64,000 nt of DNA from a virus, in IMG/VR virus record IMGVR_UViG_3300027365_000009, positions 85,877-149,876 of that record, one strand, 5' to 3'. Positions 11,260 to 42,607 of this stretch are shown piece after piece (position 1 is the stretch's first letter; each line of letters begins with the position of its first letter). The notes below the pieces were generated by a model. The model ran no database searches and was not told where the DNA came from. It saw nothing but the letters and a program-made list of their open reading frames with translations. The position numbers and the translations under genes are program-made.

Positions 11260-11281
11260 GGCCTCCCCGAATGGGGAGGCC
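11260..11281. terminator. GC-rich hairpin between convergent units
   Basis: GGCCTCCCC-gaat-GGGGAGGCC preceded by GACATA. Confidence 0.65.
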
Positions 11282-15804: not shown

Positions 15805-15954
15805 GTAAGGCCCTCCCCGCGGGGAGGGTTTTATGACGTCACCGCTGTCTAAACGTTCTGTTCGCGGTAAAAACTACTGGTTGTTGCAATGATACACCGG
15901 GGGTCGTTTGACCTCCACTTATTCAGGCCCTACCAAAGGAAGGATTGCGTTATC

Positions 15955-24358: not shown

Positions 24359-24421
24359 CTTATAAACGCCCTCCCGCCGGGGAGGGCTATCTATATTCAC
24401 TTTCACTTTTTTGGAGTTGTT

Positions 24422-31653: not shown

Positions 31654-31691
31654 GGCATACACTCCCTCCCGGTATGGGAGGGAGGTATGTC
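31654..31691. terminator. Bidirectional hairpin with CATA/TATG flanks between convergent genes
   Basis: GGCATAC-a-CTCCCTCCC-ggtat-GGGAGGGAG-GTATGTC. Confidence 0.75.
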
Positions 31692-33871: not shown

Positions 33872-35920
33872 TTACCATGTGGTGTACACGGGTCGGGTGT
33901 TTATCAATTGACGCTCCAGGGTTTTGAGATCGTAGGTCTCTTCCAATTCGTACGCCTCACTAGACACCGTCATGGTACCGTTATCCTCAGATACGTCGAA
34001 CGGAGACTTAATCCCTAGGATAGCCTCCACTTGTTGTTGAGACCATGCCAAGATATCGCCGGAGCGTGTGGAGATGTTAGGTTCATTTCCAGTGTCGAGG
34101 AAACATTCCCACACCGTCGTTTGGGTGTCAGCTCCGAGGCGATGAATCCGGCTGATCGCTTGTTCACGAATGTACGCACGGAACGGTGCGTTAATCATGA
34201 TCATCGTATCGGCCATAGTGAGTGGGACTGCGGTGGACAGTGACTGATAGGTCGCGATGAGGGGGTTGAGGTCTTCCTGTCGGTCAAACTGCTGGACCGT
34301 TTTATTCAGTTCACTGTTATTCTTTCCGTACACCATCACCGGGTTCATTTCCTGTTTGGTGAGGTGGTCATAGGACGCCTCGAGTGCCTCAACAAATGAC
34401 GTAAATACCACGGTCTTCTTCGGGGTCGATCCACACACCCCTTTGAAGTCAATGTGGGGTACCATGTCCACATGACACTGAATGCGTTTACGTCCTAGAA
34501 TGCGACCTAACGCCTCACCCTGGATTTTCAAGTTTACGTACTTAACGATAGACTTGATGTCCTTGAACTCATTGCGAAGTTCTTTGGGGAGACTTGGGAT
34601 AATATACCGTTTCTCGTAGTCGTTAGATCGTTTGATCTCTTCGGCACAGAACCGCGCGTCCCCATTGAACTTCTGGACCTTCTTAACATCTTCCCGATAG
34701 ATCGCTAGGTCGGCTGCGTGCTTACGGTCCTTGACTTGGTCAGCATGGATCTTCATACATTTGTCGTAAAACGCATGATCGTCCTTTTTCCGACTCTGGT
34801 AATACTTAGTCCTTTCCGCAATAAACGCTTTCATGTCTTTGCGGATTTCCGTTAAGGTATAATCCCTACCGTTCGGGATTACCACCGGGAGTTTCTTCAT
34901 CACTGGCTTATCTAGACCAAGTTGATGTTTCTCGACCTTAAAAGCGATCTTTCCAATACGATGTTGAAGAATGTCCAAAGCACGCAGACCGTCACGTCCA
35001 TAGATTTTCTTGAACCGTTCCTCTACGTCCTTGGTGAAATAAGGATCAATCGCCCTGAGAAGCGGAATCGCTTCACTACCAATACTCTTGAACGGCGTCC
35101 CTGAGGCGTATAGCGTATCAGTGGGCTCAAGCTTTTCCAGCAAGGTAAGGAACTTCTGGGTACGTTGACTACCGATGTCGTTCAGATTATGGGATTCATC
35201 CAGGATCACTACCGTACGTTCGGTGCGTAGGTCATTGGCGAGATCCAATGCTTTATCTAGCGCCTCATAATGGAAGATCGCAACATGTTCGTTTTTGAAC
35301 GGTTTGTCGTGCTGGGCGACCCAACTCGACGGGGCTTTCTTGAATAGTTTATTGACCTCACTTTCCCAGACACGCTCTGTGGCATTTTTAGGGCAGACCA
35401 CCACAATCCGTTCAGCCTTTAAACAGTTGGCAATAGTGAGGCCCATCAGGGTCTTACCACTACCCGCTACCGCAGCAAGAAGGTATCCTTTAAGTTGGTA
35501 CTGCTGGGTGAGTCGATCATATTCTTCATAAAACGTCTGTTGGTAATCCAACGGACGGTAGATCATGTCATTGACAAGGGACAAATCCATTCTCGGCTTC
35601 GGTTCCAACTGTGTGTCTTGGAGCCAGGTGTGTTCGAGAAGTAGATCCTTGATCTTAGTCAGAGTACGGACATTGGTCCACCGGGAACGATGGGTAGTCA
35701 TCGTCTCCAACATGTAATAAATGTCGGTCGCAAAAAAGATAGGAAACGCCAGCGTGTTACGTGACGCGGTCGTGAACATGTACTGGTTAATGCGCGATGT
35801 CTTCCAAATGCGTGAAATATCGCGGGCCATGGTATCAGCAGGAATCCCGCTGATCACAATTTCTTTTTCGGTCTGAGTGACTTTAATGTTGCCAAGAATG
35901 CGGCGGATTTTAGAGAACAC
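33872..35920 (-). CDS. SF2 (SNF2-like) helicase
   Basis: Motifs AGSGKT, VVCP, ILDESH, SGTP and QAISRIHRLG. Confidence 0.92.
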   Translation of the reverse strand: MFSKIRRILGNIKVTQTEKEIVISGIPADTMARDISRIWKTSRINQYMFTTASRNTLAFPIFFATDIYYMLETMTTHRSRWTNVRTLTKIKDLLLEHTWLQDTQLEPKPRMDLSLVNDMIYRPLDYQQTFYEEYDRLTQQYQLKGYLLAAVAGSGKTLMGLTIANCLKAERIVVVCPKNATERVWESEVNKLFKKAPSSWVAQHDKPFKNEHVAIFHYEALDKALDLANDLRTERTVVILDESHNLNDIGSQRTQKFLTLLEKLEPTDTLYASGTPFKSIGSEAIPLLRAIDPYFTKDVEERFKKIYGRDGLRALDILQHRIGKIAFKVEKHQLGLDKPVMKKLPVVIPNGRDYTLTEIRKDMKAFIAERTKYYQSRKKDDHAFYDKCMKIHADQVKDRKHAADLAIYREDVKKVQKFNGDARFCAEEIKRSNDYEKRYIIPSLPKELRNEFKDIKSIVKYVNLKIQGEALGRILGRKRIQCHVDMVPHIDFKGVCGSTPKKTVVFTSFVEALEASYDHLTKQEMNPVMVYGKNNSELNKTVQQFDRQEDLNPLIATYQSLSTAVPLTMADTMIMINAPFRAYIREQAISRIHRLGADTQTTVWECFLDTGNEPNISTRSGDILAWSQQQVEAILGIKSPFDVSEDNGTMTVSSEAYELEETYDLKTLERQLINTRPVYTTW

Positions 35921-36062
35921 GAAAATTGCCTCGGGCGTGGATAGGTTGCGAAATCATAAGATTGACGACATAACCGGATGACCTCCCTGCGCGTGGGAGG
36001 TCGGTACCACAACTGTAACAGTGTGTCTTACATAGTATTACGTATAATGCCCTAATGTTATA

Positions 36063-36233
36063 GCACTGGTAGGGTTCGGCGTAATGCCCTACGTTAAGGA
36101 AGGTGATCCAGTCGCTAAAGGTCGGTAGGAGGATGAGTTCCGCACTACCGGCTGGGGGTCAACCAATCACCGTGAGGTGACCGTATCCCCACCCTAGGCT
36201 ACCGGTGCGCATCGCCCTCCCTTCGGGGAGGGC
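36063..36233 (+). ncRNA. Putative structured ncRNA A plus terminator hairpin
   Basis: Closing helix GCACTGGTAG (36063-72)/CTACCGGTGC (36199-208). Inner helices GTAGGG/CCCTAC, GTCGGTAG/CTACCGGC and TCACC-GTGA-GGTGA (GNRA loop). UUCG hairpin at 36214-33. Confidence 0.55.
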
Positions 36234-36260
36234 CCCTATTCCAACTCTTAGGTGTTAACC

Positions 36261-36401
36261 ATGGATATTCCTCCTGAAGGTACATCCCCTGAGGAAACGA
36301 TCAACCATTGTTTACATGAGCTTCTGTCTCGACAACGACCTCTTGATGAAGAATTTCAGCGTGTCTTAAACGAAGAGGCGTTCGACCTCTACGAGGAGTA
36401 G
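36261..36401 (+). CDS. Small acidic protein (46 aa)
   Basis: Not in the track. RBS AGGTG. Sequence MDIPPEG...QRPLDEEFQRVLNEEAFDLYEE. Confidence 0.55.
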   Translation: MDIPPEGTSPEETINHCLHELLSRQRPLDEEFQRVLNEEAFDLYEE

Positions 36402-36804
36402 TTATACGCACAGTACCCATGATGTGCTGAGGTACATAACTACCGAAGCATTTTAGAAAGTTCGCCGCCCATTGGCTTAGTGGCAGGCGAGCACCACTAA
36501 ACAAGAACGGTAGTATGAATTGTTCCTAAACCCATTTCTCGTGTTTCTATCGTCTCTTTTGGTTCTTCTTTGGTTAACCCGACCCTGTGGTGGGCAGTTG
36601 GGGTTTACCTGGTCTGAAGAGCATCGTGAAACGCGGGACACACTAAAGATTGGGTGTTCATTACACCGCAACGCTCTGGCCGTTGTATGGATAATGACGC
36701 TTAGTCTAGGCCCACCACCCAGTAAGTCGTGGTTAAAACGAAACACTCCCCTGCGGGAGTGATACCCGACGCGGGTATAAGGAGCCTCCCATGTGGGAGG
36801 CTCC
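36398..36804 (+). ncRNA. Putative structured ncRNA(s) B/C
   Basis: Rod at 36435-36517 and long-range helices 36574-95/36710-36 enclosing several hairpins. Serial hairpins continue to 36804. No convincing ORF. Confidence 0.5.
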
Positions 36805-36912
36805 TATGTCGTAGGGTAGTATTATTACGATAAAGATAATCTTATGACGAGATGTGTGAGTCTCATAATACCAAACCAAAACGCAATCACGCAGCACTGA
36901 AGGATACCACCC

Positions 36913-37101
36913 ATGGATTTACCCAATGATACCTTTTTAGTTGACCAACATGTGTTAGATCTCCCGGTACAGGCCATTAGCCTCGACTGCAATTTCTGGC
37001 AGGGAATGGACCCCTACATGGAAGTCCCACAAGAAATGACTCGCTATGTCCCAGACCTTATCGACTGTGGGGAGTTTGGTCAGCGCCTACTAGAAAACTG
37101 A
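36913..37101 (+). CDS. Hypothetical protein
   Basis: RBS AAGGA. Confidence 0.6.
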   Translation: MDLPNDTFLVDQHVLDLPVQAISLDCNFWQGMDPYMEVPQEMTRYVPDLIDCGEFGQRLLEN

Positions 37102-37123
37102 TTATCGTCTAAAAGGTATTGTA

Positions 37124-37606
37124 ATGTACGCCATATCACAAGAACGATTTCTGGCTCGCGTGAGCGACACATTCGACATTGAACTCACCAACAGTCAACC
37201 CGATAGCATCGAAAGCTACCAGGTCACGCCGATGTGGCTAGGGAATGGCTGGTTCCAGTTGGACGATCACCACCCGCGATTGTTGTCGATCACCACCCGC
37301 GATCGACATTGGGGCGTATTGGTATATTTCTTGAATGGCGCAACACACAAACCCTACATGACGGTACATGGTGCTAATGTTACGTGTTGGGATGATTTCC
37401 CTTCAGAAGTCCAGTGGGCGCTTTGGAAGATCCTTCATCATTTCCATCGCCCGGACAGCGATCTTCATCCCAAACATCTAACACAACACACGTTACACCT
37501 CTTACAAGAGAACGGTACTTTATCGAAGCGAAAGTGCGCTAAGATACGTCCCATCATGGAGCGTTGGTTCTATCGACTGAATCCCGTGTATCAACCACCC
37601 ATGTAG
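37124..37606 (+). CDS. Hypothetical protein
   Basis: 160 aa, followed by a UUCG hairpin at 37618-37635. Confidence 0.7.
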   Translation: MYAISQERFLARVSDTFDIELTNSQPDSIESYQVTPMWLGNGWFQLDDHHPRLLSITTRDRHWGVLVYFLNGATHKPYMTVHGANVTCWDDFPSEVQWALWKILHHFHRPDSDLHPKHLTQHTLHLLQENGTLSKRKCAKIRPIMERWFYRLNPVYQPPM

Positions 37607-37717
37607 ATGGCGCCCCGCCCTCCCTTCGGGGAGGGATTTTCTGTCCTTAACGTGAAAATACCCACTTGCCTGATGATCTGCTAATGACTTTCTGTCTGTC
37701 ACTTGACTACTAAGGAT

Positions 37718-42550: not shown

Positions 42551-42607
42551 AATCTTACTCCTCAAAGTCTTCATAAAACCCCTCCCCGTGGGGAGGGGTG
42601 TATACGG

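Follow-up and report, generated by a model that had tools for sequence, protein, structure and literature searches.

In the gap between the start of a helicase gene and a 46-codon ORF at position 36261, a stretch of viral DNA holds a segment (36063-36233, plus strand) that an initial annotation had described as a candidate for a multibranched, novel noncoding RNA of ∼150 nt under selection at the RNA level. The stretch, which we call the window, comprises 64,000 nucleotides and forms the right half of an IMG/VR record of 149.9 kb that is ∼51% complete. The locus raises the question of whether such an RNA gene exists, how widely it is shared, and what its product may do in an infected cell. Phage small RNAs are few and their function is mostly unknown, and the known tactics by which phages act on translation rely on proteins, tRNAs, and ribosomal-protein genes.

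Judged by its genes, the source is a fragment of a phiKZ-like jumbo phage, that is, a nucleus-forming phage of the Chimalliviridae type. The helicase gene (33872-35920, minus strand) encodes a 682-aa SNF2/DEAD protein, which is identified by Pfam and PHROG hits as the homologue of PHIKZ203; it shares 52% identity with Noxifer gp231 and 44% with PHIKZ203. Its start codon lies 143 nt from the start of the RNA in the window, and the gene, which is outside the RNA itself, serves as the synteny anchor for the RNA family described below. The sequence and coordinates of 36063-36233 agree with the earlier description.

The RNA Gene and Its Fold

Rfam 15 covariance models run over the whole window gave no match at gathering score, the same collection at E ≤ 10 over 35850-37200 gave nothing overlapping 36063-36233, and ARAGORN found no tRNA or tmRNA genes in the window; the initial statement that the element matches no known family holds on these searches. 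The annotation had also asked whether the fold is any better than those of dinucleotide shuffles. It is for the plus strand, at −80.4 kcal/mol versus −64.8 ± 4.7 kcal/mol for the shuffles (z = −3.3; none of 200 shuffles did as well). For the minus strand the result is nearly the same (z = −3.1), and energy alone therefore cannot choose the strand.

Homologues were collected by way of the neighboring protein: a protein search returned helicase relatives graded from 98% to ∼55% identity, and their contigs were then compared. Seven distinct clade sequences resulted, among them L011 and L013; patterns and a covariance model (R1) added L025 (IMG/VR G001), L028, L038, and L040. Across the seven distinct homologues, 97.1% of the cells are standard pairs and 25 of the 40 pairs have changed on both sides, in an alignment that was fitted to the model and hence favors structure; MAFFT alignments made without such fitting nevertheless show the compensatory changes clearly. 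When the partners were slid by 1-3 columns, 35-45% remained paired, and no shuffle equaled the observed values. The paired columns hold 29 G·U cells versus 4 A·C cells, with pairing of 97% on the plus strand versus 88% on the minus strand, as the annotation had argued when it took the G-U pairs to favor the plus strand. The plus strand is fixed by these G·U pairs and, in addition, by the conserved motif upstream and the directionality of the terminator (see below). The covariation supports the proposal of a novel multibranch RNA selected at the RNA level on that strand, and we read 36063-36233 (+), on its sequence, as encoding a stand-alone structured RNA of ∼170 nt with a four-way junction and a GNRA hairpin.

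The best-supported helices in the seven homologues are the closing helix and the GNRA hairpin. The closing helix, P1, joins the 5′ strand GCACUGGUAG (36063-36072) to 36199-36208, and 9 of its 10 pairs are compensatory; the 10-bp helix drawn initially between GCACTGGTAG (36063-36072) and CTACCGGTGC (36199-36208) is thus real. Its 3′ strand, CUACCGGUGC, follows the junction ACCCUAGG, and the two together (36191-36208) hold a conserved heptamer, GGCUACC. P2 (36073-36093) is a hairpin of variable sequence that is found in every member, with consensus pairs 36074-75/36091-92 and 36078-81/36085-88 in the numbering of the window; Noxifer and G003 are fully compensated relative to each other (GGCUAC/GUAGCC against GGUUUC/GAAACC). 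The GTAGGG/CCCTAC helix of the initial annotation was correct insofar as a hairpin follows the closing helix in all homologues; its register was right only in part, since the consensus places GTAG in the closing helix.

P3 (36120-36153) pairs GGUCGGUAG with CUACCGGCU and carries an apical GGA/UCC mini-helix and a conserved AGGAGGAU bulge. Four of nine pairs in its stem show compensatory changes, by which the inner helix GTCGGTAG/CTACCGGC (36121-28/36145-52) that had been proposed is confirmed; the hairpin is replaced or absent in phiKZ-type members. We note that the P3 bulge (36130-36137) is a second Shine-Dalgarno (SD)-like sequence, AGGAGGAU, which is kept in six of the seven clade members and missing from L028 and the phiKZ-type RNAs. 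The P4-P5 arm (36154-36190) consists of a GGGGG/UCCCC stem, an internal loop, and a GNRA-capped UCACC-GUGA-GGUGA hairpin; compensatory changes are seen in two of five pairs of the outer stem and in five of five of the hairpin. This hairpin (TCACC-GTGA-GGTGA, 36167-36180) had been recognized from the outset, and its loop is always GNRA (GTGA, GCGA, or GAGA). An alternative long pairing, GGTGATCCAGTCG with CGGCTGG..., had also been suggested; it is not conserved and is impossible in L028 and L040, and we rejected it.

Reach of the Family

The region and the L025 RNA, used as blastn queries against GenBank phages, gave no match. The divergence of the family is too great for blastn, and only the covariance model and the motif led to the isolates. 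The first four IMG/VR helicase relatives likewise had no DNA-level similarity, and pattern scans of IMG/VR added only two phages, G001 and G002; a further five pattern hits were dismissed as chance matches on the evidence of the model and Rfam. A second covariance model (R2), derived from the clade of the window, found a copy in phiKZ (AF399011.1:212851-212972, plus strand) between genes 203 and 204, with 37 bits and E = 2e-7, and another in HPP-Temi at the equivalent site beside the helicase, with 31 bits. Both copies carry the upstream motif AATGATATAG, a closing helix, a 5′ hairpin, UUUAAGGGGGUGAUCCAG(UC/CC)G, and a terminator. A motif scan added 201phi2-1, Phabio, Psa21, Noxifer, and four Noxifer-like contigs, all with, upstream of the helicase, the layout P1-P2-segment A-terminator, where segment A is the unpaired stretch considered in the next section; the Noxifer-type members were detected only through motif and layout. 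A 13-bit hit at 76.7 kb in Noxifer was discarded in favor of the syntenic, motif-found copy. The minimum-energy folds of the phiKZ, HPP-Temi, Noxifer, G003-5, and Psa21 RNAs all contain P1.

In every member found, the RNA lies within ∼1.6 kb of the SNF2 helicase gene, and in almost all of them it adjoins the gene; the 201phi2-1 copy, between gp304 and gp305 (near 229.0-229.2 kb, plus strand), is ∼1.6 kb away. The phiKZ RNA resembles that of the window in having (A)ATGnTATAG, the closing helix, the 5′ hairpin, the unpaired AGG(A/G)GGUGAUCCAG, a terminator with TTAT, and a position next to the helicase. The two differ in the 3′ domain, which is larger in the window clade (P3 and P4-P5 with the GNRA loop) and a single hairpin in phiKZ, and in the window copy segment A carries a bulged A and the terminator tail is degenerate. 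Every cultured phage with the RNA infects Pseudomonas. When the DNA up to 2.5 kb from the helicase was scanned, the motif turned up in none of the Erwinia, Ralstonia, Xanthomonas, Klebsiella, E. coli, Serratia, Vibrio, and Aeromonas phages, and the exact motif was absent genome-wide from five of those non-Pseudomonas chimalliviruses, a search that divergent versions could escape.

The RNA is also absent from beside the helicase in several close relatives, including L012 (88% helicase identity), and is therefore dispensable or mobile. By its distribution, the RNA has the character of an accessory module; the variable region in which it lies also holds homing endonucleases and inteins. The helicase/dCTP deaminase neighborhood is a hotspot of selfish elements (L012:179-922, L026:4588-5388, L013:1-250), with GIY-YIG/I-TevI-like endonuclease genes and an intein inside the dCTP deaminase, and LAGLIDADG inteins are found in several helicase homologues of ∼1030-1050 aa (P0011, P0021, P0042, and P0053 relatives). 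In L012, the closest relative whose sequence covers this region, no more than 211 nt separate the helicase from a 56-aa ORF. In the window, the ∼720 nt 3′ of the 46-aa ORF (36402-37123) hold no convincing ORF, and a single 28-nt match (in L013) is all that aligns with relatives. Given the short gap in L012 and this lack of alignment, the whole block, including the RNA, looks like an insertion.

Absence from some close relatives, together with a minus strand that folds nearly as well, could be taken to favor a chance structure or a nonfunctional relic of captured rDNA. We regard this as extremely improbable in view of the strong covariation, the conserved promoter-like motif and terminator, and conservation across phages whose helicases share 44-59% identity. 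On comparative grounds, the family of structured phage RNAs is real, conserved from uncultured phages to phiKZ, and unpublished; our full-text search of the literature found no description of an RNA family of the 203-204 gap type. The family also corrects existing annotation, which has tiny CDS calls across the RNA in HPP-Temi and an empty gap in phiKZ. In HPP-Temi (L044:1225-1507; PP968062.1:92645-92927), HSP1_CDS0188 and HSP1_CDS0189, both labeled "hypothetical protein", overlap the RNA on the opposite strand, and they are probably misannotations.

Complementarity to the 3′ End of 16S rRNA

The only invariant unpaired segment of the RNA is (U)AAGG(A/G)GGUGAUCCAG.., whose core, AGG(A/G)GGUGAUCCA, is unchanged in 17 of 17 family members. 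This is segment A (UAAGGAAGGUGAUCCAGUCGC, 36095-36115 in the window), which complements the 3′-terminal ∼20 nt of 16S rRNA; its target comprises the anti-SD tail and the 3′ strand of helix 45. The window copy makes 15 contiguous pairs with the 16S tail and 5 more past a one-base bulge (A). All 17 members form 14-21 contiguous pairs (ΔG of −31 to −42 kcal/mol) with a Pseudomonas-type tail, which may not be that of the hosts of the metagenomic members. The 16S target sequence was taken from E. coli rrsH (...CCUGCGGUUGGAUCACCUCCUUA), and the Pseudomonas-type 41-mer is found exactly in many Pseudomonas genomes; exact copies of the variant AAGGTAGCCGTAGGGGAACCTGCGGCTGGATCACCTCCTTA are present in numerous Pseudomonas, Acinetobacter, and Halomonas genomes.

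The changes that segment A does tolerate leave the complementarity in place. The replacement of AAGGAGG by AAGGGGG keeps the 16S pairing (A-U to G·U), and CCAGUCG, CCAGCUG, and CCAGCCG each pair with CGGCUGG, wobble preserving the match. Mean identity is 0.97 in segment A versus 0.57 in the other unpaired columns. Within the 150-kb phage genome, segment A is the top match to the complement of the 16S tail and is unique, and no conserved partner for it was found inside the RNA. The GGTGATCCAGTCG stretch, for which the annotation had proposed an internal partner, is therefore, as far as conservation can tell, a complement of the 16S rRNA 3′ end that has no partner within the RNA. Two features count against such a duplex: ∼5-8 nt of the complement fall in the helix 45 stem, which is paired in the mature 30S subunit, and in thermodynamic ensembles segment A is only ∼50% unpaired, owing to weak local hairpins.

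The reading that we favor, and to which we give somewhat better than an even chance, is that of a trans-acting antisense RNA that would bind the 16S tail on 30S or late pre-30S particles. A more conventional role would be that of an ordinary sRNA, whose seed would recognize C/U-rich, anti-SD-like sites in mRNAs of the phage or the host, such as 5′UTR sequesters or the CCCUCCC arms of terminators. Those arms in the phage could indeed pair with AGGGAGG-like sequences, and most sRNAs act through seeds of 6-8 nt. Here, however, the complement runs for 14-21 nt and tracks 16S rRNA through GGAUCACC into helix 45, which the terminator arms do not contain, and no site of comparable complementarity exists elsewhere in the 150-kb phage fragment; we consider an mRNA target improbable. 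Hfq-dependent, trans-acting sRNAs also carry a 3′ U-tail, and a U-tract follows the terminator hairpin neither in the window nor in its homologues; the conserved complement is directed at rRNA and is not a short mRNA seed.

A protein-binding scaffold or sponge for RsmA/CsrA-type GGA binders, ribosomal protein S1, or a phage protein would account for the SD likeness as a byproduct of mRNA-leader mimicry. Pseudomonas uses RsmY/Z sponges, the window copy has several GGA motifs (AAGGAAGG, AGGAGGAU), phiKZ has an AGGA hairpin loop, and a fold this complex and conserved hints that the structured domain has a protein partner. What speaks against this explanation, and leaves it unlikely in our estimate, is that the GGA of segment A is lost (AAGGGGG) in L013, L040, phiKZ, and HPP-Temi while the 16S pairing is kept, and that GGA-binding proteins do not explain the invariant UGAUCCAG. 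The several conserved GGA loops of RsmY/RsmZ-type RNAs are likewise missing, the AGGAGGA bulge of P3 being absent in L028 and in the phiKZ type.

A second complementarity to 16S rRNA involves the 3′ part of the RNA. The heptamer GGCUACC (in 36191-36208) complements GGUAGCC, on the 5′ strand of helix 45, and in phiKZ and HPP-Temi the match of this part (GGCUACC/CUACGGUGCCUUG) to 16S ∼1497-1515 exceeds shuffles (z = −3.1 and −2.3, respectively). In the remaining members it is not above shuffles (z of about 0). The phiKZ sequence (L045:1600-1625) and that of HPP-Temi (L046) read CCCCAACUACGGUGCCUUG(CUAC/ACGAC) and complement the 5′ strand of helix 45 and the linker; the window clade shares only GGCUACC, which is not significant. 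We record the matches in phiKZ and HPP-Temi as an observation and do not count them as evidence; a two-sided clamp around helix 45 is possible.

In the full-text literature that we searched, we found no bacterial or phage RNA that targets the anti-SD tail through long antisense pairing. Elsewhere, the archaeal Val-tRF acts on the 30S subunit (PMC11009984) and C/D-box guides pair with rRNA (PMC4644070). These small RNAs likewise act on the small subunit or pair with rRNA, and they differ from the window RNA in sequence, structure, organism, and binding site.

Predicted Transcription Unit

A promoter-like motif, TAATGTTATAG (consensus WATGnTATAG; 36053-36063, plus strand), lies directly 5′ of the RNA in seven of seven clade members. 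The corresponding motif is AATGATATAG in phiKZ, HPP-Temi, and Phabio, and TGTATG in the Noxifer-type members. The late promoters of phiKZ are TATG with the +1 position at the G (PMC4666361), and by this analogy transcription is predicted to start at or near G36063, the first base of P1. At the 3′ end, the hairpin GCCCUCCC-UUCG-GGGAGGGC (36214-36233, plus strand; DNA GCCCTCCC-TTCG-GGGAGGGC) is one of more than 15 copies in the genome. The published phiKZ terminator motif is a hairpin, BCCYCCCC-loop-GGGRRGG, followed by YTTATKYYGT (PMC10914365). The hairpin at 36214-36233 fits this motif exactly, and its tail is CCCTATTCC (CTAT) instead of YTTATKYY; the clade homologues have the full hairpin and a TTATGCC tail a few bases beyond the closing helix. 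What had been noted as a "UUCG terminator-like hairpin" is hence one copy of a genome-wide type that fits the phiKZ terminator, with a degenerate tail.

CCYCCC-loop-GGGRGG hairpins that match the published phiKZ motif occur genome-wide, usually followed by TTATG(C/T)CGT; copies lie at 11262-11279, 15811-15828, 24369-24386, 31665-31681, 36785-36800, 37618-37635, and 42580-42597, and the left half of the genome holds more. Several of these hairpins appear to be bidirectional. The TATG of the tail equals the phiKZ late-promoter core, and terminator and promoter may thus be fused.

The borders of the unit are sharp, since 36053-36242 aligns at 88% with L011 and 79% with L013 and the similarity stops ∼10 nt outside the unit, the flanking noncoding DNA having no alignment to either contig. 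The unit is intact in L013 and L028, although its orientation with respect to the helicase is reversed there, and L013 has a second promoter-like copy 3′ of the terminator. The inverted unit there (L013:1990-2235/L016:2727-2990) sits between two copies of TTAAGTATTTGTTTGTGTA..TATAG, the second of which opens another unit that begins with TATAGTGCTGG and lies upstream of a 173-aa ORF. As for coding capacity, a small ORF from a GUG in segment A was considered and rejected, as it lacks SD spacing; it is the sole frame that starts in the segment, it is unconserved after "MIQ", and its length varies from 4 to more than 26 codons. We conclude from this that the RNA is noncoding.

Segment A has no AUG, GUG, or UUG at 5-12 nt and is thus SD-like without a usable start codon, as is STAB-SD of the Bacillus thuringiensis cry3A mRNA (Agaisse and Lereclus 1996, reviewed in PMC4113751). 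STAB-SD is likewise SD-like and noninitiating, and its effect depends on a bound 30S subunit, with whose 16S 3′ end it pairs. The RNA could accordingly be a STAB-SD-like or leader element in cis, in which the start-less segment docks a 30S subunit and stabilizes the transcript or a read-through mRNA, or else an attenuator with a regulated terminator; the gene served would be the 46-aa ORF in the window and gene 204 in phiKZ. A precedent exists for mRNA stabilization by an SD-like sequence that lacks a start and pairs with the 3′ end of 16S rRNA (PMC4113751), a codirectional gene follows the terminator in the window, phiKZ, L028, and L040, the terminator tail is degenerate in the window, and many 5′UTR-derived small RNAs of phiKZ arise by premature termination, according to Putzeys et al. 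(PMC10914365).

In L025 and L038, however, the next gene is convergent with the RNA unit, so that no gene lies downstream for the RNA to lead or stabilize. L013 has its new promoter copy past the terminator, the downstream genes are nonhomologous between members, and 14-21 nt of complementarity with an elaborate covarying fold exceed what a stabilizer needs. STAB-SD itself is a short motif in the 5′UTR of a long mRNA, and its Gram-positive host has RNase J1, whereas the window RNA has a 14-21 nt segment in a dedicated, phage-encoded structured RNA with its own terminator, and some members of its family have no downstream gene and hence no 5′UTR location. On balance, a role in cis seems to us a minor possibility.

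Small RNAs have been published for phiKZ and 201phi2-1, namely, 3′UTR_PHIKZ298, 5′UTR_gp40, and an sRNA upstream of gp182/gp277 (PMC8545117, PMC10914365, PMC11512511). They share with the RNA described here a noncoding nature, the same promoter and terminator types, and conservation among relatives; they differ in their loci and sequences, and complementarity to 16S rRNA has been reported for none of them. The phiKZ Grad-seq study sought phage RNAs that do not comigrate with ribosomes (PMC8545117). By that design, a 30S-bound RNA would have escaped it.

Proposed Role

In the antisense reading that we favor, transcription would begin at the phage promoter-like motif with the first base of P1 and end at the phiKZ-type terminator hairpin, and the junction of P1, P2, P3, and P4-P5 would hold the long unpaired segment A, UAAGGAAGGUGAUCCAGUCGC. 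This segment would serve as the antisense seed for the host 16S 3′ end, that is, the anti-SD tail and the adjoining strand of helix 45, and through it the RNA would base-pair in trans with 30S subunits or late pre-30S particles in the cell. The pairing may occupy or remodel the site at which mRNA docks and at which late assembly factors and 3′-end RNases act, while the role of the structured domain would be to stabilize the RNA and perhaps to bind a protein. We infer an effect on ribosomes, for which several candidates can be named. The RNA may block, reserve, protect, or mark ribosomes; it may block initiation on a fraction of subunits, interfere with Era, RMF, bS21, or 3′-end maturation, or shield the 3′ end from exonucleases. 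Against the antisense reading stands the observation that the phage's own genes have ordinary SD sites (80 of 120 versus a 14% background), so that wholesale blocking of the anti-SD would harm the phage too, and the lack of the element beside the helicase in several close relatives also counts against it.

A bolder form of the antisense reading, which we put forward tentatively and think rather less probable, is that nucleus-forming jumbo phages of Pseudomonas, including phiKZ, reprogram or disable small subunits by means of an antisense RNA that clamps the anti-SD and invades helix 45. In phiKZ and HPP-Temi, the second segment would pair with the other strand of helix 45 and create an RNA-rRNA junction. 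Such a junction might block initiation on a subset of ribosomes, stall late 30S maturation, or shield or mark the 16S 3′ end for or against RNases.

The presence of the RNA in phiKZ makes the idea directly testable, as antisense-oligomer genetics, Grad-seq, cappable-seq, and cryo-EM are already established for this phage. If the clamp is real, it would be a host takeover by direct RNA-rRNA pairing, which has been described for no phage. If the antisense reading is true, the family would represent a new viral route to act on host ribosomes, through a long complement of the tail on which mRNA docks.
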